The notes below the pieces were generated by a model that was not told where the DNA came from, ran no database searches, and saw nothing but the letters and a program-made list of their open reading frames with translations. This document shows positions 9,734 to 35,690 of a DNA stretch of 44,494 bases, piece by piece. This stretch comes from an uncultured Candidatus Saccharibacteria bacterium. GTDB taxonomy: Bacteria; Patescibacteriota; Minisyncoccia; Phycocordibacterales; UBA918. The stretch covers positions 1 through 44,494 of the forward strand of contig CAYFXS010000001.1 of NCBI GenBank assembly GCA_964347215.1, in the 5' to 3' direction. Made by a program: the position numbers and the translations under genes. The stretch's first letter is position 1. The number at the start of each line of letters is the position of its first letter.

Positions 9734-9764
9734 ACTTGTTTTGATTATTTAAAGAATAGGTTAA

Positions 9765-10970: not shown

Positions 10971-10981
10971 TATTTGTTTAG

Positions 10982-11129: not shown

Positions 11130-11233
11130 ACTCTTTTGGTCGCTTGTAACGAACGAAATTTGTTTCAAGTCCGACTATATCATATGCACTACAGAGCAAC
11201 ACTGTTCAAAAAAGTATTGCTGTGGTCTAGAAC

Positions 11234-11272
11234 AAAAAACACGGCAGACCTGAAAGGTCTGCCGTGTTTTTT
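11234..11272. terminator. Bidirectional intrinsic terminator after pilB
   Basis: aaaaaacacggcagacc (11234-11250) and ggtctgccgtgtttttt (11256-11272) are exact reverse complements. Confidence 0.8.
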
Positions 11273-11281
11273 GTTTCTTGA

Positions 11282-13003: not shown

Positions 13004-13149
13004 GTTGACCTAATTGTAGCAGGTGAAAGCGGGAAAAAGCGAAGCTTTTTCCCGCTTTCATAAAACTCACCCCAATTCACCATCTATTTACAAATAAAAT
13101 ATATATTGTATTATTATAAAAAAGTAATTAGTCACGAAAGGGGACTAAA

Positions 13150-19273: not shown

Positions 19274-19312
19274 AAAAACAAAGGCGGTTCCTACGGAACC
19301 GCCTTTGTTTTT
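19274..19312. terminator. Bidirectional terminator between the convergent methyltransferase gene and murE
   Basis: aaaaacaaaggcggttcc (19274-19291) and ggaaccgcctttgttttt (19295-19312) are exact reverse complements. Confidence 0.8.
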
Positions 19313-20603: not shown

Positions 20604-20653
20604 AGGAAATAGTATAAGTTGAAGCAGTGTTTAAGTGAACTTGCGGAGCGTGA

Positions 20654-21244
20654 TTAATTCTGTCCAAGTTCTTTCAACGCTGCTTTAATAGCATCGTTGG
20701 CAGAGTTGATTTCAGGTGATAGGTTCTGTACTGTTTTGCGGGCGTCACTTTGTGGGTAGCCCAATGAGATAAGGGCGTCAATAGCGTCGCTTTGCCAGTC
20801 TGTAGTTTTTTCTGAGCCGAGCCCGTCGCTGTCTGTGGTGCCCCAACCCAAGTCAGCTACTTTATCTTTCAGACCCAGCACCACTTTTTCAGCTGTCTTT
20901 TTACCCATACCCGACATTTTTGAGAGGTGGGCAGGGTCGTCATTATTAATAGCTGTTTTGATTAAAGTCAGGTCAGCTTGGGTGAGGATTTGGGCAGCAG
21001 ATTTTGGTCCAATTCCTTGCAGTCCCAGGAGAAGTTCAAACAGTTCTAATTCGTCGAGAGTGGTAAAACCATAGAGATCAGAAGTGGTTTCTCTGATGGC
21101 GTGGTGAGTGTGTAGCTTCACATCAGTATCTAAAGAGAATTGAGATGGTTGATTAACAAAAACAAGATAGCCGACTCCTCTCACATCTACCACAATTGAG
21201 TTGATGCTTTGGTGCGCTACTTTACCAACAATATGTCTAATCAT
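20654..21244 (-). CDS. ruvA: Holliday junction DNA helicase subunit RuvA
   Basis: MIRHIVGKV...GVGYLV is the OB domain and LLGLQGIGPKSAAQIL / MSGMGKKTAEKVV are the HhH pairs. The start is moved to the internal ATG at 21244, because the ORF-track extension covers a repeat element. Confidence 0.88.
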   Translation of the reverse strand: MIRHIVGKVAHQSINSIVVDVRGVGYLVFVNQPSQFSLDTDVKLHTHHAIRETTSDLYGFTTLDELELFELLLGLQGIGPKSAAQILTQADLTLIKTAINNDDPAHLSKMSGMGKKTAEKVVLGLKDKVADLGWGTTDSDGLGSEKTTDWQSDAIDALISLGYPQSDARKTVQNLSPEINSANDAIKAALKELGQN

Positions 21245-21251
21245 GCAGCTA

Positions 21252-21393
21252 GTATACCCCGACCTTAACATTTCCAAAACTTCGGTTAATAGCAGATTAA
21301 TTTTGTATGAAATGAGTGTACTACTGCAATAGTTTTATAATAGGTAAATTAAATAACAGTGTTTTACATTGGAAATGTTAAGGTGGGGTATAC
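21252..21393. repeat. 25/26-nt inverted repeat bracketing the ruvA-lnt divergent control region
   Basis: gtataccccgaccttaacatttccaa (21252-21277) matches the reverse complement of ttggaaatgttaaggtggggtatac (21369-21393), differing only by one extra g. The spacer is 91 nt. Each arm ends 7-10 nt before the likely start codon of the flanking gene. Confidence 0.7.
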
Positions 21394-21403
21394 AATAATC
21401 GTT

Positions 21404-22837
21404 ATGTTATCCATCTGTGCGAACCGCTTATATCTTTGTTGGGTTGGTAGTGGCATTCTTTTAATGTTGGCTTTCACTATCCCCTGGTTGTGGTGGTTGT
21501 TTGTACCAGCTTTGTTGGGTTGGTTAAAAGTGTATCTGGAGACTGAGTCAGGTAAGCAACTATTCTTAGGATTGCTGATATTTGCCACGCTTAAATATGC
21601 GGGAGGTATTATTTGGTTTTGGCAGGTTTACCCTTTGGAGTGGTTAGGGCTTGAGAGGGGGTTAGGGCAATTGTCTCTAATTGGTTTGTATTGGCTAGTA
21701 ACCTCGTTAGTTTTAGGGTTAGGGTTTGCAATAGTGCTTTACGGCTTTAAGTTTGCCATAAAACAGAGGCTGGTGTGGTTGTGGTTGCTACCAATTGTAT
21801 GGGTCATAGCTGAATTGTTTGCTTCGTGGTTATTTTCAGTGTATTCACTTGGTCCGATGATTGAGCCTAATGCAAAATTCAGCTTTGGTTATCTGGGCTA
21901 TTTATTAGCAGATTCTTCGTGGCTGCAATTGTCACAGTGGGGTGGAGTATACATCCTGACTGCTTTTGGAGTTGGTTTAGTTAGTTGGTGTTACTTTTTA
22001 TACGCTCGTTTATTTAAAAAGGAACTACTACTTGGTTTGATTGGGTTTAGTTTGGTATTGGGTATGGCGTTTAGTGTTTGGACTTTTGAAAGTAGTCAGT
22101 CTGACTTGGTTGTAAAAAGTATAAATACTCAATTTGATGGAGTGGGACTAATGACAAACGATGGTGTAAAACGGAAAAAGTTGATGCTTCTGGAGTATGT
22201 AACTGAAGCTTTAAAAGATGATGAGGTAGATATTTTGTTGTTACCAGAGGATTCTCGGTTTACTTTAGCTTTTCCTGATCCAAGTTTCGCATTGCAGTTT
22301 TTGATGGCTAACTCTAACAGAGATGTTGTTTTAGTTGATTCGACTACGATGGTTGATAGTCGAGGCGAGTTGGTTTTGCGAGCTTTTATTTATGACACTA
22401 AGGTAGAGATGGTGTACGTGGTAGATAAACAGTATTTGGTACCACAAGGTGAATTTATGCCTTACTTACATGGTTGGTTGTTGGAAAAGGTTATGTCGCG
22501 AGATTTGTTAGAGAGAGCTCAAGGGCAGCGCTTTGTGCCCGGGGTATTTTCTGATTACGACATGGTATCAAATGAAGTTCCTCCAGTGCTGTTTTGTTTT
22601 GAGAGTGTGTCACCAACTGGTGTTAAAAATCTTTTGTCGCAGCAACCGGCGTCAGTAGTTTTACATCAGGTTTCTCATGGTTGGTTCAATCATCCAACCA
22701 TCTTATGGTTTAACTTGGAGAGAATGCTTAAAGTGCAGGCAGTATGGAATCAGGTGACTATTATTGAAGCAGCAAATATGAAAACTGGTAAAACCTACTT
22801 ACCAAACGGGGTGGTGTTAGAGAATTCGAGGCGGTAG
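21404..22837 (+). CDS. lnt: Apolipoprotein N-acyltransferase-like protein (polytopic N-terminus plus CN-hydrolase domain); start uncertain (21359 GTG or 21404 ATG)
   Basis: Multiple N-terminal TM helices are present. The candidate catalytic triad contexts are LLLPEDS (Glu), VDKQYLVPQGEFMPY (Lys) and VLFCFESV (Cys), in the order expected for Lnt. Confidence 0.6.
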   Translation: MLSICANRLYLCWVGSGILLMLAFTIPWLWWLFVPALLGWLKVYLETESGKQLFLGLLIFATLKYAGGIIWFWQVYPLEWLGLERGLGQLSLIGLYWLVTSLVLGLGFAIVLYGFKFAIKQRLVWLWLLPIVWVIAELFASWLFSVYSLGPMIEPNAKFSFGYLGYLLADSSWLQLSQWGGVYILTAFGVGLVSWCYFLYARLFKKELLLGLIGFSLVLGMAFSVWTFESSQSDLVVKSINTQFDGVGLMTNDGVKRKKLMLLEYVTEALKDDEVDILLLPEDSRFTLAFPDPSFALQFLMANSNRDVVLVDSTTMVDSRGELVLRAFIYDTKVEMVYVVDKQYLVPQGEFMPYLHGWLLEKVMSRDLLERAQGQRFVPGVFSDYDMVSNEVPPVLFCFESVSPTGVKNLLSQQPASVVLHQVSHGWFNHPTILWFNLERMLKVQAVWNQVTIIEAANMKTGKTYLPNGVVLENSRR

Positions 22838-22862: not shown

Positions 22863-24101
22863 ATGAAGTATTTTAGTTACGGTAAAGGATTGCTAGGTCT
22901 TGGTTTGCTACTGTTTGTAGCATCTGGTTACTGGTTGTTTTTTACCAGTGGTCACATCTTTACTAGTCAGTCAGCTACGGCTGACTCTAGTTTGGCCCAA
23001 CATAATAAATACTTTGCTACCAATCCATCATTTGGTGAGTTGGTGATTTACTTTCAAGATCTTTCACATGAGATTGGGGCTGATAAAGCTTTTGATGTCT
23101 TGATTTATGGTGATCTGCCGTCAGATGTAGATACTCATTTGGTTGGTCATGCTGTAGGGGACATTCTTTATGAACAGAAGGGTTTGTTAGGAATGTCTGA
23201 CTGTGACAGTAATCTTGGTTACGCGTGTACTCATTCGATAGTTATTCAGGCTTTGTTGCAACAAGGCCCTTCTGTATTTGATGAGATAAATGAGATTTGT
23301 GAGTCGATGGAAGTGGCTGGTAGTTACCCACTTTGTTTCCATGGCTTTGGACACGGTGTTTTGGCCTACGCTGATTATGAGTTACCGGATGCTATTGAGT
23401 TTTGCGGCAAAGTGGGGACGGAAAAGTATCAGAGCTACGAAGAGGTTGAATGTCTAGGAGGAGCTATTATGGAGATGAAAGAAGGTTTTCATAATCCAGA
23501 TTTATGGGAAGAAAGAGGTACTAAATATCTGTCGGATGAAAATCCTTTATTGATGTGTCAGTCAGATTATATGCCTGAGGAATATAAACGAATGTGTTAT
23601 ATCTACATCACGCCATTTATCTTCGACACAGTTTCGGGTGTAGGTTGGCCTGATCCAAATAAATTTGCTGAGGCTATGAGTTACTGTGACGTATTAGATG
23701 ACCCTAAACACAGAGATGGTTGTTTTGGTGGTTTTGGTAAAGAATATATCACTTTAGTGCACGGCCGAGACGTGCGTTTGATTGAAGAAACTACACCAAA
23801 GCAACACCAGACAATCAATGAATGGTGTGCTTTAGCTTCAGATATGGCTGGGGTTAGATCTTGTGTGCGTAATGCTATGTACAGTACCTACAAAGCGGGG
23901 GCAATTGATCACAATGTTACGGTCAGTTTGTGTAATGAGGCGGTAAATGATGAGGTAAGAAATGATTGTTTGAAATCTTTTATTTACAACGCTAGTTCAC
24001 ATCACCCTAATAATGAATACGCTAATCAGTTTTGCTTAGATATGCCAGAGGGGTACATTGGATATTGTTTTGATCGTTTTATGGATGCAATAGCAGAATA
24101 A
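22863..24101 (+). CDS. Membrane-anchored/secreted paired-cysteine His-rich protein, paralog 1
   Basis: It has an N-terminal TM helix and the motifs HLVGHAVGD, ACTHSIV and CFHGFGHGV. It aligns over long stretches with the 36073-37284 product (e.g. CFHGFGHGVLA, GGAIMEMK, DYMPEE). Confidence 0.8.
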   Translation: MKYFSYGKGLLGLGLLLFVASGYWLFFTSGHIFTSQSATADSSLAQHNKYFATNPSFGELVIYFQDLSHEIGADKAFDVLIYGDLPSDVDTHLVGHAVGDILYEQKGLLGMSDCDSNLGYACTHSIVIQALLQQGPSVFDEINEICESMEVAGSYPLCFHGFGHGVLAYADYELPDAIEFCGKVGTEKYQSYEEVECLGGAIMEMKEGFHNPDLWEERGTKYLSDENPLLMCQSDYMPEEYKRMCYIYITPFIFDTVSGVGWPDPNKFAEAMSYCDVLDDPKHRDGCFGGFGKEYITLVHGRDVRLIEETTPKQHQTINEWCALASDMAGVRSCVRNAMYSTYKAGAIDHNVTVSLCNEAVNDEVRNDCLKSFIYNASSHHPNNEYANQFCLDMPEGYIGYCFDRFMDAIAE

Positions 24102-24118: not shown

Positions 24119-25129
24119 ATGATCAAGCGTTTATCAATATTGTTGATCATTCTGATTATAGCGGGGTTGGTTTGGTGGCTGGCAGACAGCAGTGTCTACT
24201 CAGATGATATGCAAGGGGATGATCAAACTCCGCCAGTTGCGAGTGCTGATGTGTTTGAGCTAAAAGAATACTGGGTATCAGCTTTAGATCGAGATGAACC
24301 ACAAGCTGTATACGATTATTTTGTACGTACTTATGAAAATGATGATGAGAATAAACGTCATTTTCTTATGCATTTATTTAGCTCATTACTTTATGAAAAA
24401 ATGGGGGATAAAGCGTTGGAATTGTGTGATGAATCATTTTTTTATGGGTGCTTCCATGAAATATTAGCGAGTCTAATGAAAGACCAAGGGGTGGGTTCAA
24501 TCGATAAAATTGCAGATTTTTGCGGTGACAATTTAGGGTGTCAGCACGGTATAGGTCATGGATTGGTAATGCATTTTGGGTACCAACAGTCAGGCTTAAT
24601 TGAAGCTTTGGAAATGTGTCGTTATGTTAACGATCCGGAAGTTATAGATGGTTGCTTGGGAGGAGTGTTTATGGAGTACACCATGGAAACTGTCGGTCAG
24701 GTAACTGATGCAGTTGGCGAAGATCGTAGATATTTTAGAACTGATTTTTGCTATGGATTACCTACAGAAACAAAAGCGGCTTGTTATTTTTGGGTGGTGC
24801 AGTGGTACATAATAGATAACAATTTTAATATGGCTGATTTAAAAATTGCGAGTGGCCGAGAATTTTGTGCAGAGGCTGAAGAAGGTTATGTTGACGATTG
24901 TATGGGAGGAATCGGTTACGTAGTTAATCGCTTTGCTGTTAATCCAGATGAAAGCATCAGACTTTGCCAGTGGGCCAGTCCCAATCAAGAAGAGTTGGAA
25001 GTAGAGGAATGTTTAGTGGTGGCAGCTATTGATTACGGTTTCTTTAGTGATGAGACAGCGGTAGATAAGTTATGTGATTTGGTTTCTGGAGATAATCAAA
25101 GTCGTTGCCGGTCGGTTTTGAATGACTAA
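24119..25129 (+). CDS. Membrane-anchored/secreted paired-cysteine His-rich protein, paralog 2 (shorter, divergent)
   Basis: It has an N-terminal TM helix, GCFHEILASL, CQHGIGHGL, and a repeated phi-C-x(6-14)-C-x-x-G pattern. Confidence 0.75.
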   Translation: MIKRLSILLIILIIAGLVWWLADSSVYSDDMQGDDQTPPVASADVFELKEYWVSALDRDEPQAVYDYFVRTYENDDENKRHFLMHLFSSLLYEKMGDKALELCDESFFYGCFHEILASLMKDQGVGSIDKIADFCGDNLGCQHGIGHGLVMHFGYQQSGLIEALEMCRYVNDPEVIDGCLGGVFMEYTMETVGQVTDAVGEDRRYFRTDFCYGLPTETKAACYFWVVQWYIIDNNFNMADLKIASGREFCAEAEEGYVDDCMGGIGYVVNRFAVNPDESIRLCQWASPNQEELEVEECLVVAAIDYGFFSDETAVDKLCDLVSGDNQSRCRSVLND

Positions 25130-26001
25130 ATAATTGTTTTTACAAAAGGTAATACCAGCAGATCAAGCTCTGTATTTTTTAATGGAACAGTATCGGTGGT
25201 AACGCATGTGACTTTTTCCTGTTTTAACAATTGCTTCAGTTCAGGTGTCGGGCAGGAAAGTACTGCGTGGGTGACAAAAATAATAATTTTTTCTACTTCA
25301 GGATTATTTAAAAATTGTTCAACAGTTGCGCTGATGGTTTTACCGCTATCGATCATGTCGTCGCAGATAATAATGTTGGGTCTCACGGCTGGGGTGTCTA
25401 TTGATGTAGTAACTTGTGCATGGGTACGTTCTTTTTTGGCTACAACATAGTCACCGCCAAACTGTTCAGCTAAGTTTTTTGTAGTTTCGCCGGCACCTTG
25501 ATCCGGAGCAATGAATAAGCATTTGTCTGGTGCTATTGATAGTTTATCAAGGTGTTCGAGCCATACCGGCTGCGGATCAATTGAGTTGATAGGAGTATGA
25601 AACAACCTCAGTATTTCTTGGTTATGGATATCGATGACTTTAATTTTATTTAAGTGGCCAATACTATCTAATAATCTAGCAATAGCTCTAATGGGGAGGG
25701 TGGTAGAGGTGTCATTATTTTTATCTTGTCGTGAGTAAGGTAGGTATGGAACAGTAAGATTGATTTTACAGTTCTGACTCATTAAAGCGTCACAGATGAG
25801 ATATAGCTGAATTAGTGAGTCATTAATCTGAGGAGTTAGAAAGAATACCAGTTCAACTTCAGTAGAGAATTTAGGGTCGGCTTTTACCTCCCATTCACCA
25901 GAAGGGAATTGTTTAAAATCAATCAATGAAATCTGCTGCTCATCTGAGATAAGAGAGTTGGCAAAAATTTTATTGTTAGTGACTATAAGTGACTTACTCA
26001 T
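25126..26001 (-). CDS. prs: Ribose-phosphate pyrophosphokinase (PRPP synthase)-like protein
   Basis: The motifs are FPSGEW (FPDGE-like), PYLPYSRQDK, IDIHN (DLH-like) and the PRPP loop IIICDDMIDSGKT. Its start overlaps the end of the upstream fusion gene by 8 nt. Confidence 0.8.
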   Translation of the reverse strand: MSKSLIVTNNKIFANSLISDEQQISLIDFKQFPSGEWEVKADPKFSTEVELVFFLTPQINDSLIQLYLICDALMSQNCKINLTVPYLPYSRQDKNNDTSTTLPIRAIARLLDSIGHLNKIKVIDIHNQEILRLFHTPINSIDPQPVWLEHLDKLSIAPDKCLFIAPDQGAGETTKNLAEQFGGDYVVAKKERTHAQVTTSIDTPAVRPNIIICDDMIDSGKTISATVEQFLNNPEVEKIIIFVTHAVLSCPTPELKQLLKQEKVTCVTTDTVPLKNTELDLLVLPFVKTII

Positions 26002-27682
26002 TGTTTAAATGAAATGCAGTTAGGCCGTTGTCGTTAGTTGGTACGTACAGAGTATCATCATCAAAAATTACTGGTGAAGTAATCCTTTCATTTAGTTGTG
26101 TAACAGCCATGATTTCACCTGTTTCCTCTTTTATTTCGTATAAGCAAGCGTTGTTGGTGCCGATGTATACGATGCCGCCTTTAATAACAGGGGTAGAAAA
26201 CATTCTGGCTCGTAGGTCTATCTCCCACCTCACTTCACCAGTTCTTTTATCTACACAGTATAAGTACTTATCAGTAGCAGCAAATAACACATGTTGTTCG
26301 GTGATAGCTGGTGAGCCAAAAATACCTGATCGCACATTTGGATTGTAGAATTTTGTTCCGACTCTAAACACCATATCACCGGACTGTCTTTTGACTGCGT
26401 ACATAAAACCATCAACAGAAGCGACGTAAATGAAATCGTTGATTGGGTCATAAACAGGACGCTGCTTAATGTCTCCTGGACTGAAGCCGCCTACGCCATC
26501 GTAAAATTGACCCCCTTCAGTTTCAAAAGACCAGATAAGTTTTCCATCATTGGCATCAAGTAAGTAAAGTCGACCTTCGTTTGAGCCAATGGCAACTTGA
26601 TTATGCTCTTTAATATAAATTGGGGAAGCGTGGGTCAGGGCTCGCATGTTAAATTCCCAGAGTAATTTACCAGTGTCGATATCTAGTGCAGCCAAAGAGC
26701 CACGTCGGTTCTGTGGTCCACTGTGTTCGAGTCCAATGTAGATAGCGTTATTTTTATGACTAATACATGGGGATGATCCCACCCAGTCGCAGTTTTGGTA
26801 GACCCAATTGACTTGGCCCGAGTTTTTATTTAGAGCATAGAATTTACCGTCGTAAGATCCAAAAAACACTTGGTCTTTATAAACGGCAGGAGAAGAGAAA
26901 ATATTTTTTTGTTGATCGTGGACGCCGGTGACAAATTCCCAGGCAATTTTCCCAGTATCTTTATAAAGGGATATAAATTTACCCTGGTCAGTGCCAAAAT
27001 AAATGTTTTTGCCAACTACAGCAGGGATAGATTTCTGTGTCACCATGATGTGACTAGCAATTGACTGTTCGGCAACCCATTTTTGTCGGTAAGGGTTAAT
27101 TTTTGGTTGCAGATCGGTTGGTTTGATTGCAAAATCATCCAAACGAAAGATTGTCTCTAGCTTAGTGTTTTTGGTTAAAAAAGAATAGTAGCTGTTTTCA
27201 TGATATTGAATTGTGGTCAGAATATGAGAGATAGTTAGGTCATGTTTTTCTAGAACAGTTTTTGCCCAGAGCGCAGTCAATCCACTGTTAATTACATCAT
27301 CTACCAGAATTACAGGTGTGTTTCTTGGTTCACCTTCAATTTGTAAATAGCGACCACTTTTTTTACGTGAACGACGAATATAAAAACCGGTAACTGTCTT
27401 ACCATCTGCTGCCGCTCTATCTAGTAATGAGGTTAGAAGAGGGAATGAAGCTGTTTCCACCCCAGCCAGTTGGTAATTATCCAGGTGTGATATTTTTTGA
27501 TACAGATAATTTGTTAGTGAGGTAAGTAGTTCGGGGTTAAGTAACCACTTTTGCATCTCAATATGCCCACGACCTATGTATGGCATGGGGGTGTCAGACT
27601 CTGTTGGGTTAACGATGTAAGTTTTTATATACTCTTTCAATTCTGATGTATCCAAAGTAAAGGCATTATAACTAAGCAGCAA
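25994..27682 (-). CDS. Fusion protein: OPRT-like type I phosphoribosyltransferase domain plus 8-bladed PQQ/BamB-like beta-propeller
   Basis: The N-terminal ~190 aa carry the PRPP-binding loop VILVDDVINSGLT and the OPRT-like QLAGVETASFPL...RRSRKKSGRYLQIEG. The C-terminus has 8 repeats of the phi-phi-G-x-x-DG-x-phi-x-A-phi-D-x-x-x-G-x-x-x-W type (e.g. VFFGSYDGKFYALNKNSGQVNWVY). The ORF-track start is a TTG, so the true start is uncertain. No signal peptide is present. Confidence 0.75.
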   Translation of the reverse strand: MLLSYNAFTLDTSELKEYIKTYIVNPTESDTPMPYIGRGHIEMQKWLLNPELLTSLTNYLYQKISHLDNYQLAGVETASFPLLTSLLDRAAADGKTVTGFYIRRSRKKSGRYLQIEGEPRNTPVILVDDVINSGLTALWAKTVLEKHDLTISHILTTIQYHENSYYSFLTKNTKLETIFRLDDFAIKPTDLQPKINPYRQKWVAEQSIASHIMVTQKSIPAVVGKNIYFGTDQGKFISLYKDTGKIAWEFVTGVHDQQKNIFSSPAVYKDQVFFGSYDGKFYALNKNSGQVNWVYQNCDWVGSSPCISHKNNAIYIGLEHSGPQNRRGSLAALDIDTGKLLWEFNMRALTHASPIYIKEHNQVAIGSNEGRLYLLDANDGKLIWSFETEGGQFYDGVGGFSPGDIKQRPVYDPINDFIYVASVDGFMYAVKRQSGDMVFRVGTKFYNPNVRSGIFGSPAITEQHVLFAATDKYLYCVDKRTGEVRWEIDLRARMFSTPVIKGGIVYIGTNNACLYEIKEETGEIMAVTQLNERITSPVIFDDDTLYVPTNDNGLTAFHLNNE

Positions 27683-27778
27683 GAAGGATGGAACTTGACG
27701 TGTAAGTTAGAGTTTGGTTCGTGTCAATTTAAAATCATTTTGATATAAGTTAATATATTTTAAAGTTAGAATCACGAA

Positions 27779-29062
27779 ATGTCAGAGCATAAGGAAATTC
27801 AAAATGTTGTTTTAGTAGTCTGTGATTCATTATCAGCCATGCGTATGTCGTTGTATGGCCATAGACGTAAAACCACACCTAGAATCGACGCTTTTTTCCA
27901 ACAAAAAGGTGAGGTGTACTCCAATGTCCGCAGTAATGCTTCGTGGACTTTTCTCTCTTTTCCGTCATTGTTTCGGTCACAGATGCCGTCAGGCATCACG
28001 GTTAAAGAGTTGAGTAGTAACAGCAATTCTTTTACTAAAATTTTAGAAGCCAGTAATGTTTCGACGTATGGTATTGGCTATGAGGGAGAGAGGGCTATTT
28101 TACAGAATATACGGCAAGCCTTTCCTTCAGAGAAAATGTTTGCTTTTCCTTCTGGTGTTGAAGACAAGTCAGTTTATCAAATGTATCGTCAGGCCCTAGA
28201 TTTGCTGAAGAATAAAAACGAAGAAAAAAAAATTATATTACTACATGAAATGGGGGTGCATATGCCTTATGACCCCGCATCTAAGTACCGCACACTTTTT
28301 GGTAAAGATGTCATTCCAGATTCGGAGGTGGTAACTAAGGAAATGATATCCCCTATTCAGTATCAACAATATGACAATGTTTTTTCTAATCGAGTAAGAA
28401 GGCTTTACGATCAAGGGGTGAGAGAGTTTGATGATCGCTTCAGTGATTTTTTAGAACAAATAGACGAAGACATATTACGTAAAACGTTGGTTATTCTTAC
28501 TGCTGACCATGGTGAAACATTTGGATCTCGTGATAATGAGTATAATCACGGTACTCATCTGTGTGATGACTTGCTGCGGGTTCCATTATGTATTTATGAT
28601 CCTACTTCTAAAACAGGGAGGAGTATCGCTCCGTTTTCATTACTAGATTTAGCGCCAACTATTTTAGACCGACTGAATATCGGCATCCCGTCTCAGTATG
28701 AAGGTGTGCCAATCAATTTAAGTCAAACTAATCAAATGGAACGTCCTATATTGGCTGAAGGTAGGCGTAGTTCTGAAATTGCACCACGTGAGAACTTGCA
28801 ACACTTGGTGACTCATTATTCTGATAGATTCATACTTGATCCAGTTACACAAAAGACTGTGGTTATTGGAAAGTATAAGTACCATATATACGCAGTTGGT
28901 TTTGCTATTAAGGAGTATGTATACGATCTTGAAGTTGATCCGTTTGAAATGAACGATCTGTTGAAGCAGTCAGAAACTTTAAGTGAGAAGGTGAGAGAGT
29001 TTCATATTCGGGCGAGGAGTTTGGCTGATGTGAGAGGGGTTGTAGATAAGTTTATAAAATAA
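27779..29062 (+). CDS. Alkaline-phosphatase-superfamily (sulfatase-fold) enzyme without the formylglycine motif
   Basis: It has an N-terminal metal-site Asp (VVLVVCDSLSA), the LTADHGETFG motif and LLDLAPTIL. The nucleophile region reads NASWTFLSFPSLF rather than C/S-x-P-x-R. No signal peptide or TM helix is present. Confidence 0.7.
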   Translation: MSEHKEIQNVVLVVCDSLSAMRMSLYGHRRKTTPRIDAFFQQKGEVYSNVRSNASWTFLSFPSLFRSQMPSGITVKELSSNSNSFTKILEASNVSTYGIGYEGERAILQNIRQAFPSEKMFAFPSGVEDKSVYQMYRQALDLLKNKNEEKKIILLHEMGVHMPYDPASKYRTLFGKDVIPDSEVVTKEMISPIQYQQYDNVFSNRVRRLYDQGVREFDDRFSDFLEQIDEDILRKTLVILTADHGETFGSRDNEYNHGTHLCDDLLRVPLCIYDPTSKTGRSIAPFSLLDLAPTILDRLNIGIPSQYEGVPINLSQTNQMERPILAEGRRSSEIAPRENLQHLVTHYSDRFILDPVTQKTVVIGKYKYHIYAVGFAIKEYVYDLEVDPFEMNDLLKQSETLSEKVREFHIRARSLADVRGVVDKFIK

Positions 29063-29067
29063 CTAAT

Positions 29068-30681
29068 ATGGAAAAGATAAAGGAATTTATACAGAACGAA
29101 GTTATTAATAACAGCTACCAGGTCAATCCTTTTGATCCTTTCGATGTGGGGTATATTTTTGATTTTAAAAAACACATATTAAAACCAGATAAATTGGATT
29201 TAGTGGCGGAAGCGCTTTATGAAAAAATTAATAATCTGGATAATTACCAGCTAGGTGGTCTGGAAACCACGGCAGTTTTTTTAGTGACAAAATTATTATT
29301 GCTAGCTAAGCGTGATGGTAAAAATGTTAATGGTTTTTATATTAAAAAAACAGGTAGTCGATTAAATATTGAAAAAAATATCTGTGGTCAATTAAATAAT
29401 AATCCAATTATATTGGTAGACGATTTGATTAATTCTGGTTACGCAACTTTGAAGCAGGTGGATATGCTCAGTTCTCTTGGCTATAGGGTTAGTGGAGTTT
29501 TGGTGGCAGTTGCCTTCAAGTCGTTGTCTAAGTATAGTCCTATCACTGATAGGCAAATTGAGATAATGAGCTTATTTAATAAGAGTGAGTTTGTTATTGA
29601 AAAACCTATGCATAGACACTTTGCCGATGGGTTCCCTGCAAAAGGGTGGGTACAAAATTTCAATAAAGGTATTGTAGATATTGCTGTCAGCTCAGTGTCA
29701 GGTGTGTTATTGGTGTTAACAGCTGATGGCTTTGCATATATTTTGAATGGACAGTCAGGAGAAGTTTACAATCGGACTTTTGCTGGTTTTGGATTAAAGA
29801 TAGTTTCTGCGGCCGGTGACCAGTTTCTTTTGCAGGGTGATGATAGATTTTTATGGCTTGATGCGGTGAATGTGAAGATGGTCGGGGAAGTCTTGAGGGA
29901 GTTCAACTCTATTGCCTACGTTGACCAGGAAGAGTGTGTGATAGTTCTTGGGCTGGAAGAAGGAGTTGTTTATTTATCTAGTTACAAAAAACATGAAATC
30001 CAACCCTTTAAGAAAACTAAACTAGATCATTCGTTCACAGATGTAAAATATTTTGCTAATTGCCCTGTAATATTTTTACTTTCAGAATCAGGTACCATTG
30101 CTGGTTTTTCTCTAGAATCAAATAAAATAATTTGGCTACAAAAATTGGAGCTAGGTAAGCACATTTGGTCTGCCGCTAAATCCAATTTTAATAAATTTAC
30201 CTTCGACGTCGGTAGTGGTCAGGTGGCTTTTGGGACGGAGGGGGGATTATTGTTTGTGGTAGACATCGAGACTGGTGAGATTGTTTTGCAGCAACACTTA
30301 GATTACCTAGATACTGTTGTCAGGTCTCCGATGAGGTCTGCACCCGTTCTACATGATGGTAAATGTTATTTTGCTGGTTGGGATAAATTGATCACCAAGG
30401 CTTCTTTAGATAGTAAGGAGTTTGAATATCAAATGCCAGTTGGCAGCAAAATCAATGAACTATATAAAGATAAAGGAGATTGCTTGTGGGCTTTTGGGAA
30501 CAACGGAAAGATTTTTCGGTTACACACATCAAATTTTACTTTTTGCCTTAAACTATCGCTAGTGACATTGAAGGGGTTAGATAAAGTTGTTTATAATGAT
30601 GTCGAGGATAACTTTATTGTACTAACTGATAAGCAAACATTAACTTTAATTACTGATATTAAACATGAAACAAGACTCTAG
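29068..30681 (+). CDS. Second fusion protein: type I phosphoribosyltransferase domain plus degenerate beta-propeller
   Basis: The N-terminus parallels the 25994-27682 product (NLDNYQLGGLETTAVFL..., PRPP loop IILVDDLINSGYAT). The C-terminus has degenerate G-x-phi-phi-x-phi-D-x-x-x-G-E-phi repeats (GGLLFVVDIETGEIV, ADGFAYILNGQSGEV). Confidence 0.7.
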   Translation: MEKIKEFIQNEVINNSYQVNPFDPFDVGYIFDFKKHILKPDKLDLVAEALYEKINNLDNYQLGGLETTAVFLVTKLLLLAKRDGKNVNGFYIKKTGSRLNIEKNICGQLNNNPIILVDDLINSGYATLKQVDMLSSLGYRVSGVLVAVAFKSLSKYSPITDRQIEIMSLFNKSEFVIEKPMHRHFADGFPAKGWVQNFNKGIVDIAVSSVSGVLLVLTADGFAYILNGQSGEVYNRTFAGFGLKIVSAAGDQFLLQGDDRFLWLDAVNVKMVGEVLREFNSIAYVDQEECVIVLGLEEGVVYLSSYKKHEIQPFKKTKLDHSFTDVKYFANCPVIFLLSESGTIAGFSLESNKIIWLQKLELGKHIWSAAKSNFNKFTFDVGSGQVAFGTEGGLLFVVDIETGEIVLQQHLDYLDTVVRSPMRSAPVLHDGKCYFAGWDKLITKASLDSKEFEYQMPVGSKINELYKDKGDCLWAFGNNGKIFRLHTSNFTFCLKLSLVTLKGLDKVVYNDVEDNFIVLTDKQTLTLITDIKHETRL

Positions 30682-31627
30682 ACACCTGTATCACAATATC
30701 TGCAACAGTTCGTTATTTGTCAGTGATTTTTTAGCTAAAAATGCAGAGATAATTAAGCAGGACACACTTTTTATGCCTAGTCAGCTTGAGTTTCTTTGGA
30801 ATGCTGAAGAACACCGTGACGATTATATGTACGCAGAGCAGTTAACCTATGCTGTTAATCAGTTGAGTAGATTGATCGCTCCTTTATCGGTCTTTGAGCA
30901 ACTGACTGCTGACTGGACTGATTTGGAGGTGCGTGCTGCTGAAGAAGTTATAGCTAGGGCATTGCGAGCAAAAAGTTTATCACGTCGTCAAAAAATAAAA
31001 TCCTTGTTGGTACGATATATGTTGCGTAACTTGTTTGTGTCAAAAGTTAAAAAAGGGCAGGGTGACCAGCGTTTTGTGGTAAAGGTAGCAGATTTTGATC
31101 CGACTCCATTGCGTGCTGAGCTTAATAAACTCAATCCTCATTGGTGGTCTATTGATACGAGGAGGCAGAATAATATAACGCATCATCAGAAAACATGGTC
31201 ATTAATTTTACGGCAGTCACCAAATAAAACTGAATTTTATAAACCCATTGATCAAAAGCACGAAAGTCTGGCTACTTTAACGGCTGATTTGTTGCCCAAG
31301 ACACATGCGGCAATCTTACAGTTGGCTAATGAGCTAGGTATTGGTTTAGGTAGGGTGGCAGTGGTGAAGTTGCGACCCAAAGCTCAAGCTTATAGACATT
31401 ATGATTCAGAACGACATTTGGCGGGACGTAAACGGTATCATTTAGTATTAGATTCAGCTCAGAGCGGAAATATTTTAGAGTCAGGCAGCGAACGGGTGGA
31501 GGTTAAGCCGGGGGAAGTGTGGTTTTTTGATAATAAAGCTATGCATCGAGCGGTTAATAACTCAGACCAGTATCGAGTACATGTGATATTTGATGGTTAT
31601 CCCCTAAATGAAAAAGTTGATTACTAG
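30665..31627 (+). CDS. Aspartyl/asparaginyl beta-hydroxylase-family (cupin, 2-oxoglutarate/Fe(II)) protein
   Basis: The C-terminal region is YRHYDSERHLAGRKRYHLVL...VKPGEVWFFDNKAMHRAVNNSDQYRVHVIFD, which matches the H-x-D...H facial triad and W-F-D-x-x-x-x-H signature of that family. It overlaps the upstream gene by 17 nt. Confidence 0.65.
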   Translation: MKQDSRHLYHNICNSSLFVSDFLAKNAEIIKQDTLFMPSQLEFLWNAEEHRDDYMYAEQLTYAVNQLSRLIAPLSVFEQLTADWTDLEVRAAEEVIARALRAKSLSRRQKIKSLLVRYMLRNLFVSKVKKGQGDQRFVVKVADFDPTPLRAELNKLNPHWWSIDTRRQNNITHHQKTWSLILRQSPNKTEFYKPIDQKHESLATLTADLLPKTHAAILQLANELGIGLGRVAVVKLRPKAQAYRHYDSERHLAGRKRYHLVLDSAQSGNILESGSERVEVKPGEVWFFDNKAMHRAVNNSDQYRVHVIFDGYPLNEKVDY

Positions 31628-31667: not shown

Positions 31668-32258
31668 ATGAACAAACAATTCAAATTTTTCTTATACGGT
31701 CTATTTGTGTTACCAATTCTTAATTTATTAGGTCTAACCCAGGAGGCTGGAGTTGAAGTTGAGCAACCGGCTCAAGAATTCAGTGTCACAAAACTTTTTA
31801 AAACAGTGCACGCAGACACTCCCTATTCACAGAGTTCTTATAGTTACTCCCAAAGCTCGTACTTTGCGGGTGATAGTGGTGATTCCGGCGACTCCGGTGA
31901 TGGTTATGAACCGCCAGCTGAACCACAGCCATCAGAGACGGTGGATTGTGTGAATGGCGCCAGTTATGAACAGCAGCCAGATGGCACCTACGACAGAACT
32001 GGCCCAGATGGTTCAGTTAGTAGTGGCTACACCGAAGCTTATGTTGAGTCAGTTTGTGGCTGTGATGTGGGGGCACCGGGTTACGCTTATTCACAGGCTG
32101 CCTACTACTCAGAATCTTCTTACTATTCTGAGTCAGGTTATTCTGACAATAGTGCTGGTATGGGCTATTCAGAATCCGGCTATTCAGGAGGGGGTTCTTC
32201 TGGTGGTACCAGTGGATACACCGGCGGCTATACCAGTGGTTATTGTCCAGCACCATAG
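31668..32258 (+). CDS. Secreted Ser/Tyr/Gly/Asp-rich low-complexity protein
   Basis: It has an N-terminal hydrophobic signal, YSQSSYSYSQSSYFAGDSGDSGDSGDGYEP, a central region with 3 Cys, and a tail YSESSYYSESGYS...GGYTSGYCPAP. Confidence 0.65.
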   Translation: MNKQFKFFLYGLFVLPILNLLGLTQEAGVEVEQPAQEFSVTKLFKTVHADTPYSQSSYSYSQSSYFAGDSGDSGDSGDGYEPPAEPQPSETVDCVNGASYEQQPDGTYDRTGPDGSVSSGYTEAYVESVCGCDVGAPGYAYSQAAYYSESSYYSESGYSDNSAGMGYSESGYSGGGSSGGTSGYTGGYTSGYCPAP

Positions 32259-32341
32259 TTTAAGCCTGTGCATGGGAATGTATGCCAAGCTTTGCAGTTG
32301 TTTTGTTATTAATTTTAGTAACCAGCTAATCAATCCAAATC

Positions 32342-33601
32342 ATGGAAAATAATTTTGAAATGAAATTGCCTGAGGAAAATAATTCCAGTGGTGATATATC
32401 CTCGGTAGAGACTGTTAAAAAAAATAGTAAGTTGCCCCTGATTGTAGGGTTTGTATTTCTACTTCTAGCTGGATTTACCGCTGTGTTTTTCTACTTAACG
32501 CAGGTAAAAGATGAAGTTGGTTCTGGTGGTGCCTATGGTATTACTGAAGGTGGGGATACTAGCTTGGGTGAATTGTATTCTAATGAGGTCGGTCCAGTTT
32601 CTTCTGAGGGTGATGAAAACTTCGGTATAACTGGCGGCCGTGTAACTGAAGAATTGGGAGGGGTAATTATATTCTCTAGTCGTAAACCAACTCCGGTGAC
32701 TCCAGATATTCAGATACATGCTTTAGATATTCTTTCTACCAACGGTTCTGGTGTAGTTAATCTAATTCCCGATTATTTCACTAGTGCGATGGCTTCTTTC
32801 ATTGATGTGTTTAATCCAGCTGATTTTTATTTGCTGGCGATGTCTAACACTTCTAGTGAGCAAGATCCAGACAAGCGAGCTATCCATCACTACAAGGCTG
32901 GTAAGGGTATCAAACCCCTTTATGAAACTTTTGGAGAAGCCGAGCGAAATCTGGATGTATCCACTGATGGTAGGTTTGTTACCTTCAATCGAAAAATTAC
33001 TGAGTCAGACAGTTATACTGACTCAGTGTACATAAACAATTGGGAATCAGCCGTACTGGACACAGAGTCAGGTGAATTAGTAGCAGTTATTCCGCACTCC
33101 TGGTCTCCTGAACTTGTTGATAACGGCCAGTATTTAGTTTATTTAAAGAAAGATGGATTATTCTCTTATGACATGTCCACCGGCCTTGAGTCACCATTGG
33201 TTAGAGTGAGTGATGGTCAAGTTAATGCTACTGGTATGCTAGATGTCTCCAATGATGATTCACAATTACTTTGGACAACTGCTAAGCGCGGCTTAATTAC
33301 CTTGTTTAATTTAACTACTGATGCAGAGGCTGAGTTTGATAAGGTTTCGGTAAAAGCAATAGGACAGATAAGTGAGGAGGGGAGTGAGTTTTATGCACCA
33401 AAATTTTCACCAGGTGGTGAATACTATGTTGTTCAAGCAATTGATGTTTTGAAGGGCGATGATTTTCTTAGAAAAAATCCCCGTTTAGAAATTCGGGCAA
33501 TAACAGGACGTGGGGTGGTTATGTCGCACGATATTTCAGACTTCTGGTTTGATTCTTTCTTCACTGATCAATGGCTTGCCAAGATGCCTAATTTGAATTA
33601 G
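32342..33601 (+). CDS. Membrane-anchored extracytoplasmic protein, possibly TolB-like beta-propeller
   Basis: It has a single TM helix (LPLIVGFVFLLLAGFTAVFFYL) and repeated S-x-DG/SPGG-x-x-phi-phi blade-like motifs (VSTDGRFVTF, FSPGGEYYVV, NGQYLVYL). The fold call is weak. Confidence 0.45.
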   Translation: MENNFEMKLPEENNSSGDISSVETVKKNSKLPLIVGFVFLLLAGFTAVFFYLTQVKDEVGSGGAYGITEGGDTSLGELYSNEVGPVSSEGDENFGITGGRVTEELGGVIIFSSRKPTPVTPDIQIHALDILSTNGSGVVNLIPDYFTSAMASFIDVFNPADFYLLAMSNTSSEQDPDKRAIHHYKAGKGIKPLYETFGEAERNLDVSTDGRFVTFNRKITESDSYTDSVYINNWESAVLDTESGELVAVIPHSWSPELVDNGQYLVYLKKDGLFSYDMSTGLESPLVRVSDGQVNATGMLDVSNDDSQLLWTTAKRGLITLFNLTTDAEAEFDKVSVKAIGQISEEGSEFYAPKFSPGGEYYVVQAIDVLKGDDFLRKNPRLEIRAITGRGVVMSHDISDFWFDSFFTDQWLAKMPNLN

Positions 33602-33615: not shown

Positions 33616-34407
33616 ATGTCTTGGCGTTTACTGATAAAAGTTGGAGTACCGGTCCTGATTTTAGCAGGGCTGGTTTTCTTTTATGATAAATTTGCACCTT
33701 GTGACAAAGTTTGTCAGTGGCAAAGGGATGATGATTATTTTGCTTTAGGGCAATATTACTTTAACCATGATGATAATCCTGCTGGTCCTTATGATCTAGC
33801 CTTGGCGAGGTTGAATTACGAAAAAGCTATAGCAGCTGATCCGGAACAGAATAATTTACTCTGGTATCAGTTGGGAAGGATTGATTTTTTAGAGGGTAAA
33901 TTTGCTGATGCATTAGAGAAATTTACGATGCAGGAAAACTTGTTTGGTGACCAACTACCAAATGTGTACTATATGACAGCCTTAACTTATGGTTACCAAG
34001 CTCGTCGTGATAATGATGCTGAGTCATGGTTGTTAGCAGAATTTTATTTCAAAAAATTCATTAGTTACGCTCCAGAAGCTCCTTGGTCAAGGGTAGACTT
34101 AGCTTGGGTTTATTTTTCTCAAGGTAAGTTTTTAGAAATGATCCCAGTGTTAGAGGAGGGGCTTGTTCATGAGTCTGATAATCCTTGGCTGCTAAATATG
34201 TATGGCTTAGCGGTTATGAATACCAGTCAAGATAAAACTACTGCCAAGCCTTATTTTGAGCAGGCACTAGCTAAGGCGAATAAATTGACTGAGGTTGATT
34301 GGGGGCAGACTTATCCGGGCAACGACCCTTATTTTTGGAATGATGGTTTAGAAGAATTTAGGTCGCTGATTGGCAAAAATTTAGACTTGGCCAGTAATAC
34401 ACAATAA
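33616..34407 (+). CDS. Membrane-anchored TPR-like repeat protein
   Basis: It has an N-terminal TM helix and helical-repeat patterns with W/Y/A/L spacing (YEKAIAADPEQNNLLWYQLGRIDFLEGKFADALEKF...). Confidence 0.55.
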   Translation: MSWRLLIKVGVPVLILAGLVFFYDKFAPCDKVCQWQRDDDYFALGQYYFNHDDNPAGPYDLALARLNYEKAIAADPEQNNLLWYQLGRIDFLEGKFADALEKFTMQENLFGDQLPNVYYMTALTYGYQARRDNDAESWLLAEFYFKKFISYAPEAPWSRVDLAWVYFSQGKFLEMIPVLEEGLVHESDNPWLLNMYGLAVMNTSQDKTTAKPYFEQALAKANKLTEVDWGQTYPGNDPYFWNDGLEEFRSLIGKNLDLASNTQ

Positions 34408-34445: not shown

Positions 34446-35690
34446 ATGGAAATAATAGCTGGTTTTATTTTAGCTCTCACAAGCTTACTAGGATTTAATA
34501 ATTTACAAGACACCGAACATCTTGCTTCGGTGGAGTTAGGTTTGGCTGAAGTCTCGCCTTTAGGAGAAGAAGGAGGGTATGCAGTGCCAGCTAGTGGTTG
34601 TTCTTACATTACTCAGTTGGACTCACATGGAGAAATTTGTGTTAGCGATATCCCTCTGTCGTTAGAATTAGACGCTTTTCCTAATCCTACCACTTACAAT
34701 GGCTCGACTATGTTGGATTGGACTGTTTACGGTGCTACTGGTTGTGATGCTAGCGATGGGTGGTCTGGCGGTAAAGATGCTGGAGATGGTTCTTGGTACC
34801 AAATTGTAAATAATTTAACCGCTACCACTACTTTCACTCTGACCTGCTATGACGACGTGGGTAATTCAGTAGTTGATACGGTAACCGTAGGGGTTATTGA
34901 ACCTGATTTATCGGGTGGAGTGTCTGTTTCTATAACAGCTGATCCTCTGGAGGTGATGCGTGGTTTAGGAACGGCAGTTTTGTGGGAAGTTAGAAATGCA
35001 ACTGATTGTACCGCTAGCGGTGGTTGGTCTGGTAGTAAGAACAGTAACACCGGTAATCATGCTCAGTTTGTCGACAACCTACAGTCGGATACAACTTTCA
35101 CTATCACATGTATTGATGGTTCAGGAGGTAGTGCTACAGATAGTGTGACAGTAACTGTCATTAATAACCTAAATTCACCTTCGGTAGAACTCTTCGCTGA
35201 TCCGTTAGTTGTTGAATATGATGGTTCGACACAGTTAACTTGGTTTGTAGCTAACTCAAACAGTTGTTCTGCCAGTAATGGCTGGTCTGGTAGTAAGTCT
35301 AGCTCTGATGGTCAGCATAACCAGACAGTGAACAACATCATAGCCACTACAACTTTTGAGATTACTTGTACCGATGGTAGTGATAGTGATTATGATGAGG
35401 TTACAGTTTTCTTAACCTATCCTGAGCCAACTATCACAGCTACACCGCAGGTGGTGAAACCTGGTGAAGATGTAACTATTGAATGGGACCCACAAGCTTA
35501 TACTGACTGTACATTGTCTTCCAATTTAGAAAATGATCCAGACTTCATTGCTGACGGTAAGTCTGCTAACATAGCTGATACCTTTGTGGTAAATCCGACT
35601 GGTCAAACCACTTACTCTATCTATTGTGCCACTAGCGGTTCAGGAGCAGAGGTGGATGTGCATGTGGTGCCAGTAATTGAGGAAACTTAG
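34446..35690 (+). CDS. Secreted protein with four tandem ~90-aa two-cysteine Ig-like repeats
   Basis: The repeats are ...LDWTVYGATGCDASDGWSGGK...TTFTLTCYD..., ...LWEVRNATDCTASGGWSGSK...TTFTITCID..., ...LTWFVANSNSCSASNGWSGSK...TTFEITCTD..., and a divergent fourth (IEWDPQAYTDC...TTYSIYCAT). Confidence 0.7.
   Translation: MEIIAGFILALTSLLGFNNLQDTEHLASVELGLAEVSPLGEEGGYAVPASGCSYITQLDSHGEICVSDIPLSLELDAFPNPTTYNGSTMLDWTVYGATGCDASDGWSGGKDAGDGSWYQIVNNLTATTTFTLTCYDDVGNSVVDTVTVGVIEPDLSGGVSVSITADPLEVMRGLGTAVLWEVRNATDCTASGGWSGSKNSNTGNHAQFVDNLQSDTTFTITCIDGSGGSATDSVTVTVINNLNSPSVELFADPLVVEYDGSTQLTWFVANSNSCSASNGWSGSKSSSDGQHNQTVNNIIATTTFEITCTDGSDSDYDEVTVFLTYPEPTITATPQVVKPGEDVTIEWDPQAYTDCTLSSNLENDPDFIADGKSANIADTFVVNPTGQTTYSIYCATSGSGAEVDVHVVPVIEET

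Follow-up and report, generated by a model that had tools for sequence, protein, structure and literature searches.

Introduction

Transfer of phosphoribose from 5-phosphoribosyl 1-pyrophosphate (PRPP) to non-base acceptors has been described in mycobacterial arabinan synthesis, by the decaprenyl-phosphate phosphoribosyltransferase and its phosphatase, and in butirosin synthesis, by BtrL/BtrP. In both routes, PRPP-dependent O-phosphoribosylation is followed by a dedicated 5-phosphatase. Among the systems that mature peptides and proteins, the closest to the locus considered here are those of the thiazole/oxazole-modified microcins and linear azol(in)e-containing peptides (TOMM/LAP; SagBCD, McbBCD), the maturation and type I secretion of repeats-in-toxin (RTX) proteins (HlyC, HlyB/HlyD) and the AspH/LpxO beta-hydroxylases. 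The lantibiotic hydroxylase CinX acts as an Asp/Asn beta-hydroxylase on a peptide.

Here, a gene module that resembles each of these systems in part was analysed. It lies at 25126-31627 of a 44,494-nucleotide stretch of DNA from an uncultured Candidatus Saccharibacteria bacterium (contig CAYFXS010000001.1; the whole stretch is called the window below), and it encodes two proteins, fusion A and fusion B, in which an orotate phosphoribosyltransferase (OPRT)-like phosphoribosyltransferase (PRTase) domain is joined to a beta-propeller. The genes of the module, and the gene that follows them, are as follows.

25126-26001, minus strand: Prs-like (PRPP synthase) gene, 291 aa
25994-27682, minus strand: fusion A (PRTase plus propeller), 562 aa, TTG start
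27779-29062, plus strand: alkaline-phosphatase-superfamily enzyme, 427 aa
29068-30681, plus strand: fusion B (PRTase plus propeller), 537 aa
30665-31627, plus strand: Asp/Asn beta-hydroxylase cupin, 320 aa
31668-32258, plus strand: precursor-like candidate substrate, 196 aa, matching the leader hidden Markov model (HMM) of its family at 9.7e-8

The window may be read as a YcaO-less variant of an undescribed system that matures the low-complexity C-terminal tails of small proteins anchored in the membrane, with a PRPP-using fusion at its centre; we give this reading an even chance. That the fusions belong to a maturation system for peptide or protein tails is well supported, and the system probably decorates these tails by a reaction without precedent on peptides. 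This reaction would be a phosphoribosylation of the tail from PRPP. The original prediction, which took the five genes of 25126-31627 for a candidate module serving PRPP-dependent modification of an unusual acceptor, was partly supported.

The proposed logic resembles that of the arabinan and butirosin routes, in that PRPP would be used on a non-base acceptor and an adjacent Thr-nucleophile phospho-enzyme would handle the 5-phosphate. The transferases of those routes come from other families and are not OPRT-like soluble propeller fusions, and their acceptor is a lipid phosphate or an aminoglycoside, whereas a peptide is proposed here. The invariant PRTase-propeller also sets the system apart from every described class of ribosomally synthesised peptides that are modified after translation (RiPPs).

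Results

The PRTase-propeller fusion is a large natural family

In profile searches, fusion A showed a pyrE-like N-terminus (1.7e-13) and matched PQQ_2 (4.5e-41) and Beta-prop_ACSF4 (8.5e-52); its PRTase domain, approximately residues 40-190, is joined to an 8-blade BamB/PQQ-like propeller. The N-terminus of fusion B is also pyrE-like (3.8e-11), and its propeller profile matches are weak. AlphaFold2 (AF2) models gave a PRTase fold followed by the propeller for fusion A (predicted local distance difference test, pLDDT, 90.5; predicted template-modelling score, pTM, 0.88) and a PRTase fold followed by an all-beta propeller for fusion B (pLDDT 82, pTM 0.74). The best Foldseek matches of fusion A were 8-blade propellers, namely Cake8 (target-normalised TM-score 0.92) and BamB, so that the 8-blade propeller predicted earlier for this protein is upheld by both the model and the structure search. 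Foldseek on the whole fusion was dominated by the propeller and is uninformative on the PRTase-propeller interface. The likeness to BamB is one of fold: the fusions carry neither signal peptide nor lipobox, and the domain is therefore a propeller module and not BamB.

More than 120 full-length homologues of fusion A (530-585 aa, 31-48% identity) were found on independent contigs, and when one genome of each GTDB species was scanned, relatives turned up in at least 451 species. The concern that the fusions might be artefacts was thereby removed; the PRTase-propeller fusion is a real and large natural family. The carriers are mostly Patescibacteria, with further members in Bryobacterales and Terriglobia (Acidobacteriota), in one Limnocylindrales genome and in one gammaproteobacterium. 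An exhaustive search with the PRTase domain only (E <= 1e-10) returned 167 clusters at 50% identity, nearly all of 530-580 aa. The homologue search with fusion B matched only fusion B itself, and its subfamily was traced through locus L086 alone; in phmmer searches fusion B matches the family at about 1e-35 to 1e-44.

Several members carry additional domains. In 10 Acidobacteriota/Limnocylindrales loci the protein is a triple fusion of about 750 aa, with an Asp_Arg_Hydrox cupin N-terminal to the PRTase-propeller. A rare variant bears a C-terminal HlyC-type protein acyltransferase and adjoins a C39-peptidase ATP-binding cassette (ABC) exporter, an HlyD-like adaptor, an Asp_Arg_Hydrox cupin, a 2-oxoglutarate (2OG) oxygenase and a GNAT protein, and another has an N-terminal formyltransferase, with rhodanese and thioredoxin-like genes following it. 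Architectural variants of the family were seen among P0281, P0297, P0310, P0255 and P0269. Two family proteins reach 1190-1235 aa, with a C-terminal part of about 650 aa that carries no annotation.

Public databases name these proteins 'PQQ-binding-like beta-propeller repeat protein' or 'BamB/orotate phosphoribosyltransferase'. A literature search on combinations of YcaO, PRTase and propeller, on RiPPs of the candidate phyla radiation (CPR) and on PRPP-dependent peptide modification gave no relevant description. The system is thus widespread, mostly in Patescibacteria, and previously undescribed.

The fusion is accompanied by peptide maturases and tail-bearing precursor-like proteins

ORFs (open reading frames) were called in 88 loci with the fusion and then clustered. 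The commonest neighbours were YcaO (about 45 loci) and a nitroreductase-fold SagB dehydrogenase (about 37 loci), the usual operon order being YcaO>SagB>fusion. NCBIfam identified the YcaO protein as a SagD-type TOMM cyclodehydratase (TIGR03604, 4e-52) and the dehydrogenase as SagB-type (TIGR03605, above cut-off). In approximately half of the related loci the fusion shares an operon with a SagD-type YcaO and a SagB-type flavin mononucleotide (FMN) dehydrogenase, a likeness to TOMM/LAP clusters. Unlike TOMM/LAP systems, the related loci showed no SagC/E1-like partner next to the YcaO-SagB pairs. The window itself contains neither YcaO nor SagB (best E 0.17 for the cluster HMMs in all six frames of the 44 kb, hmmsearch --max), and by the defining test it is no TOMM locus.

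A family of small ORFs was the other recurrent element. In its members a basic N-terminus and a single transmembrane (TM) helix are separated by about 20 aa from an A-x-A-D-x-P motif, often AHADAP. The tail beyond the motif is hypervariable and 16-70 aa long (G 32%, D 15%, S 15%, C 7%), sometimes with YSQ..Y repeats and frequently with Cys near the C-terminus. With a leader HMM, precursor-like ORFs were detected in 51 of 87 loci. The conserved N-terminal part followed by a hypervariable Gly/Ser/Cys-rich core recalls TOMM/LAP precursors. Different from these are the TM helix within the 'leader', the length of the window member (196 aa) and the strongly acidic, GD-rich tails, which can be appended to 400-aa proteins.

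The window gene 31668-32258 is assigned to this family by its sequence. It encodes an N-terminal TM helix and V-H-A-D-T-P, then YSQSSYSYSQSSY..., GDSGDSGDSG and a ...GYCPAP end; its 144-aa tail is rich in Ser, Tyr, Gly, Asp and Cys (YSQSSYSYSQ...). The gene stands ahead of genes for a TM protein, a TPR protein and a protein of the c9 family, which matches the position of the small ORF in the string found elsewhere, divergent from the operon or beside the fusion: small ORF, c3 TM protein, TM-anchored TPR protein and others. Here c3 denotes an unnamed TM protein family of about 381 aa, and c9 and c7 are other unnamed recurrent neighbour clusters. The L001 operon reads SagB-YcaO-precursor-c3-x-fusion-cupin, where x is a 129-aa ORF. 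The earlier proposal of 31668-32258 as a candidate substrate has thus gained a conserved precursor-like family that adjoins the fusion.

GD-rich tails occurred within 3 kb of the fusion in 36 of 48 cases. The association extends beyond Patescibacteria, since a (GDGG)n-tailed protein lies 0-1.5 kb from the fusion in nine of the 12 Acidobacteriota/Limnocylindrales loci. These neighbours are often Soli_cterm-domain proteins, and in L083 the tail belongs to a 93-aa secreted peptide. Tails in Acidobacteriota consist essentially of Gly and Asp only, and the hydroxylase is always fused there. This correlation fits beta-hydroxy-Asp or an Asp carboxylate as the acceptor in that phylum. The Cys content of the tails follows the presence of YcaO, a further TOMM-like trait: tails have 3.9 Cys in loci with YcaO and 1.4 in loci without it (Mann-Whitney p = 0.005, not corrected for phylogeny), which would be expected if YcaO/SagB act on these tails.

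Across the loci YcaO/SagB, the cupin, the alkaline-phosphatase-fold enzyme, HlyC, formyltransferase and 2OG oxygenases are variable partners, and the invariant elements are the fusion and the precursor. The genomic tie of the fusions to genes that modify peptides and proteins agrees well with the earlier idea of a macromolecular acceptor. Gly/Asp-rich repeat substrates, fusions that carry HlyC and adjoin C39-ABC/HlyD genes, and the C39-ABC and HlyD genes near the fusion in L081 are also reminiscent of RTX maturation. The window differs from RTX loci in having neither HlyC nor an ABC exporter, the tails are not canonical GGxGxDxUx nonapeptides, and Patescibacteria have no outer membrane.

Other features of these loci were recorded. 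In L081 (Limnocylindrales; 7125-13424) an HlyD-like gene and two ABC transporter genes, of which one encodes a C39-peptidase-like N-terminus, were assigned by reading the sequences; they lie a few kb from the cupin-PRTase-propeller gene and a GD-tailed neighbour. In L007 (2050-2946) and also in L055, L084 and L051 (cluster c30), a TM helix and an AHADxP leader precede other cargo, beginning 'GGCFPAG...' and resembling a Hint/intein N-terminus; the L007 gene directly follows the YcaO gene. The TM helix with AHADxP may be a general targeting or processing signal of the system. Three more clusters recur as neighbours. The c10 protein (L053:13729-15114) has an adenylate-forming 'TSGSTGSPF' motif, is PaaK/F390-synthetase-like and has no Pfam match, c13 (L055:1579-3495) contains an AMMECR1 domain, and c5 (L029:11534-12856), which often adjoins the fusion directly, has seven TM segments and a C-terminal domain rich in Cys. 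Pfam searches of c3, c5, c10, c11, c14, c17 and c19 yielded only a weak TPR match for c3 (E 0.008), and NCBIfam searches of c3, c5, c7, c19 and three precursor-like ORFs yielded no match.

Fusions A and B show complementary degeneration of the active site

The closest PDB sequences to the PRTase domain are the OPRTs 2yzk and 2p1z. With PyrE the domain shares the fold, the PRPP loop (VDD..SG), a flexible loop and a homologous hood segment. VILVDDVINSG is the PRPP loop of fusion A and IILVDDLINSG that of fusion B, and the loop residues D128, D129 and N132 are invariant in 34 aligned family sequences. The R/K-rich flexible loop, F-x-x-R-K-S-R-K-K...I-E-G, is nearly invariant across the family alignment and across phyla; it aligns with residues 99-109 of E. 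coli PyrE, K107 corresponding to K103. Charged residues are also conserved in the propeller, whose conserved face includes E319, H351, W384, K406, D471/K472, R493 and E532/R533. Unlike PyrE, the fusions score below the family cut-off (TIGR00336: 50.7 bits for fusion A and 43.1 bits for fusion B against 106.8), they are always joined to the 8-blade propeller, and their gene context is that of peptide maturation and not of pyrimidine synthesis. The hood differs as well: the family motif W-I-F-D-F-R is homologous to P-Y-F-F-N of PyrE, and the residues that bind orotate are replaced.

The fusion is, by sequence, duplicated in the lineage of the window. Fusion A has kept the flexible loop (IRRSRKKSG...IEG) and lost the hood motif W-I-F-D-F-R; fusion B has kept the hood (YIFDFK), and its flexible loop is degenerate (KKTGSRLN..ICG). 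The position of the catalytic Lys is occupied by Ser in fusion B and by Phe in its L086 orthologue, and the propeller of fusion B is more degenerate than that of fusion A. The same complementary loss of loop and hood is present in L086, the closest relative. In OPRT, which is a dimer with a shared active site, the flexible loop acts on the site of the adjacent subunit (PMC10087573). Because the paralogues have degenerated in complementary fashion and OPRT dimers share their active site, fusions A and B probably form a heterodimer with one composite active site.

These residues also bear on a different explanation, in which a tail maturation or export system is present and the fusion is not a transferase: the propeller would be a scaffold or chaperone for the precursor, with the PRTase binding PRPP or a nucleotide as an allosteric or energy-state sensor, or else the whole fusion would replace the E1-like partner of YcaO. 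Propellers like that of BamB usually serve as scaffolds, PyrR and PurR are regulators built on a PRTase fold, SagC/E1-like partners were not seen beside the YcaO-SagB pairs, and fusion B has been retained in two genomes without the catalytic Lys. However, about half of the loci, including the window, have the fusion and the precursor without YcaO, and the fusion is thus not merely a partner of YcaO. Catalytic and PRPP loops that are nearly invariant across phyla, and the coupling of Prs to fusion A in the window, also speak for catalysis, and complementary degeneration of the two paralogues would be expected of a shared catalytic site and not of a sensor. We regard a non-catalytic fusion as unlikely.

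Candidate tailoring enzymes next to the fusions

The protein of 27779-29062 matches Sulfatase (PF00884, 3.2e-33), and its N-terminus matches models and structures of CptA, EptA and EptC. The formylglycine motif C/S-x-P-x-R is absent; the aligned position reads S-W-T-F-L-S, without the Arg. In the alignment T57 is invariant at the nucleophile position, and D16 and D243-H244 are conserved. The metal-ligand Asp, the Thr nucleophile and the DH pair in the C-terminal half are arranged as in EptA, LtaS and NPP-like enzymes (NPP, nucleotide pyrophosphatase/phosphodiesterase), and there is no TM domain, unlike EptA and LtaS. Identity as a formylglycine sulfatase was therefore rejected. Of the earlier label 'sulfatase-fold' enzyme, the membership in the alkaline-phosphatase superfamily stands and the sulfatase proper does not; the protein is predicted to be a cytoplasmic Thr-nucleophile phospho-enzyme of that superfamily, phosphoethanolamine-transferase/NPP-like. 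Such an enzyme is compatible with the proposed phosphate-processing step and is a candidate for removal or transfer of the phosphate. The divergent pairing of its gene with the fusion is kept in L086 and L088, a homologue occurs near the fusion in the gammaproteobacterium (L072), and on the P0125 contig a homologue comes after an Asp_Arg_Hydrox gene and before genes for a 2OG oxygenase and a sulfotransferase-like protein. The enzyme is limited to a small subclade of the loci.

The cupin matched Asp_Arg_Hydrox (PF05118) at 50.3 bits against a threshold of 22.6 and keeps the metal-binding His positions of the AspH/LpxO enzymes (YRHYD...RYHLVL...AMHRAVN), and the candidate substrates are Asp-rich. 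Its closest solved structure is the beta-hydroxylase Cpz10 (6e-4), with LpxO at 7e-5; both are distant. An additional N-terminal region of about 140 aa and the fusion to the PRTase-propeller in Acidobacteriota also distinguish it from the known AspH/LpxO proteins. A homologue adjoins the fusion in L001, L037, L085 and the P0281 locus. By profile and motif the cupin is assigned to the Fe(II)/2-oxoglutarate Asp/Asn beta-hydroxylase family and is a recurrent partner of the fusion.

Fusion A and the Prs gene overlap by 8 nt (25994-26001), and fusion B and the cupin gene by 17 nt (30665-30681). No N-terminal hydrophobic segment was detected in any of the five proteins of 25126-31627 in the signal-peptide check. 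The coordinates, profiles and hydrophobicity agreed with what had been said before of the five ORFs, their domains, both overlaps and the lack of signal peptides. Public annotation gives fusion A 553 aa as against the 562 aa read from the window, and its start may lie nine codons further downstream than the TTG.

Prs scored 158.6 bits with TIGR01251 (cut-off 113) and contains the motifs YLPYSRQDK and CDDMIDSGKT; from the 8-nt overlap it is probably co-translated with fusion A. Prs was rejected as a conserved partner of the fusion: it was near the fusion in two of the 88 loci, the window and L047, where about 1.8 would be expected by chance. A dedicated PRPP supply is thus no general trait but specific to the lineage, and the five genes do not form a conserved set, Prs being linked at chance level and the alkaline-phosphatase-fold enzyme being confined to its subclade. 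What was conserved of the predicted neighbourhood is the precursor and the cupin, which recur; Prs does not, and the commonest partners, YcaO and SagB, are missing from the window. Compared with L086, Prs and two c7 genes look inserted between the fusion and the Lnt-like, RuvA and Mur-ligase genes. In L047 (Doudnabacteria) the genes prs-pyrE-pyrF-pyrD-fusion lie on the same strand at 5724-11548; pyrE, pyrF and pyrD were read from N-terminal sequences, and the Prs homologue was matched by phmmer at 2.7e-17. The fusion therefore coexists there with an apparent canonical pyrE.

An ordinary nucleotide-salvage module of OPRT and Prs in a reduced genome could account for the similarity to pyrE models and for the adjacent Prs, and the metabolism of Patescibacteria is reduced. 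This alternative, also named in the original prediction, is very improbable: the pyrE score is less than half of the cut-off, the orotate-binding hood residues are replaced, the family is also present in large Acidobacteriota genomes, the fusion sits by an apparently canonical pyrE in L047, and the conserved neighbourhood is one of peptide maturases and tail proteins rather than of salvage.

The same genes are relevant to the production of an unusual small-molecule nucleotide or nucleoside from PRPP by the fusion, with the cupin and the alkaline-phosphatase-fold enzyme as tailoring enzymes and the product free or later attached to the tail. Small N-heterocycles or amines are the acceptors of every type I PRTase known to us; of the solved structures, the one closest to the cupin is Cpz10, which works in nucleoside-antibiotic synthesis; the fusion follows prs-pyrE-pyrF-pyrD in L047, and Prs is coupled to fusion A in the window. 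Left unexplained, however, would be the obligatory propeller, the tail-bearing precursors that almost always adjoin the fusion in two unrelated groups of phylum rank, the HlyC acyltransferase fusion with its C39-ABC/HlyD context and the SagD/SagB peptide-maturase operons. We consider a small-molecule product quite unlikely.

Surroundings of the module in the window

Downstream of the precursor gene and co-directional with it lie three further genes.

32342-33601, plus strand: TM-anchored protein with weak PD40/TolB-like similarity
33616-34407, plus strand: TM-anchored TPR protein, with 46 phmmer matches in related loci (best 4.5e-79)
34446-35690, plus strand: protein with repeated Ig/PKD-like domains, c9 family (c9 cluster HMM 3.4e-30; weak PKD match)

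The protein of 32342-33601 had no Pfam match, and in phmmer it matched L016, L085 (annotated PD40/Tricorn) and L036 weakly (5e-6 to 5e-5). The TPR cluster is present in 40 related loci. A match of the c3 HMM to 38714-39592 was probably driven by TPR, and this gene was not counted as the c3 orthologue. A 132-aa ORF at 31954-32352 (plus strand) overlaps the precursor gene in another frame and is most likely spurious, a side effect of the repeats that encode Ser, Tyr and Gly there. The promoter/terminator scan gave counts equal to those of shuffled controls.

Four paralogues of the c7 family are present in the window (22863-24101, 24119-25129, 36073-37284 and 41030-42295). Each has a TM helix at the N-terminus and an ectodomain rich in Cys and His, where motifs of the kind CFHGxGHG occur; the family has no Pfam or NCBIfam match, and it was found near the fusion in 13 loci.

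Ordinary genes surround the module at 11282-13003, 14134-16527, 19311-21277 and 21359-22837; they include a type II/IV secretion ATPase, DNA polymerase I, a Mur ligase, RuvA and an Lnt-like N-acyltransferase. The gene order of RuvA, Mur ligase and Lnt-like is syntenic between the window and L086, which supports a chromosomal patescibacterial origin of the locus.

This synteny is relevant to the idea, raised before, of an anti-phage defence system targeting nucleotides or PRPP. Retron type III-A and Shosta systems do have PRTase effectors, and the weak PADLOC matches (E about 3e-5 to 4e-3) cover the PRPP loop only. None of the five proteins had a significant PADLOC match, however, and the locus lies in conserved housekeeping synteny shared with L086. 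The family appears mostly vertical in Patescibacteria, with stable neighbours, and no features of mobile elements or defence islands were seen in the locus. A role in defence is hardly credible.

Discussion

A peptide or protein substrate is the most economical reading of these loci, because the fusion stands beside GD-tailed neighbours outside Patescibacteria too, is joined in some members to the cupin, HlyC or formyltransferase and occurs in an exporter context. On the favoured reading, the cytoplasmic PRTase-propeller would be the class-defining enzyme. Its 8-blade propeller would hold the precursor by the leader or the tail, and the OPRT-like domain would move 5-phosphoribose from PRPP onto a side chain of the tail. 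The acceptor would most plausibly be an Asp carboxylate or a hydroxyl of Ser, Thr, Tyr or beta-hydroxy-Asp. Hydroxylation of Asp at the beta position would fall to the cupin, and removal or transfer of the 5-phosphate to the Thr-nucleophile alkaline-phosphatase-fold enzyme, with Prs as a local source of PRPP. Within the composite site of the window pair, fusion A would contribute the catalytic loop and fusion B the acceptor hood. We infer this order of steps, like the transfer to the peptide itself, from the gene content and the folds.

Several points weigh against this reading. We know of no type I PRTase that acts on a peptide, and the enzymatic roles given to the fusion family are predicted from sequence and models. 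The PRTase lies below the NCBIfam pyrE cut-off and its acceptor pocket differs from that of OPRT, which makes any named acceptor tentative. Among solved structures the cupin is nearest to Cpz10, whose substrate is a small nucleoside compound and not a protein, and the linkage of Prs to the fusion does not exceed chance. The A-x-A-D-x-P motif could be a mere secretion or processing signal, since the same leader precedes Hint-like cargo. The TM helix of the precursor would require cytoplasmic modification to come before membrane insertion. Moreover, the neighbourhood in Patescibacteria (TPR, c3 and unnamed clusters) could partly reflect inherited synteny.

The strongest form of the proposal, that the fusion is the founder of a new class of peptide or protein modification in which PRPP-derived (phospho)ribose is put directly on side chains of Gly/Asp/Ser-rich tails, is put forward tentatively, and we hold it to be somewhat unlikely. 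If it were true, it would mean a protein-linked ribose-phosphate decoration in Patescibacteria and some Acidobacteriota that is independent of NAD and unrelated to ADP-ribosylation. In loci with YcaO, the acceptor could even be a freshly formed azole ring, which would give a peptide-embedded N-ribosyl azolium. PRPP-dependent peptide glycosylation would be added to the post-translational repertoire, and the fusion would be the gene by which a large class of RiPP-like or protein-tail maturation systems is recognised. Few biosynthetic clusters have been recognised in Patescibacteria, and their cell-surface biology, which is relevant to an episymbiotic life style, is largely unknown. The proposal, if true, would give a function to a gene neighbourhood that is among the better conserved of the uncharacterised ones in these bacteria.

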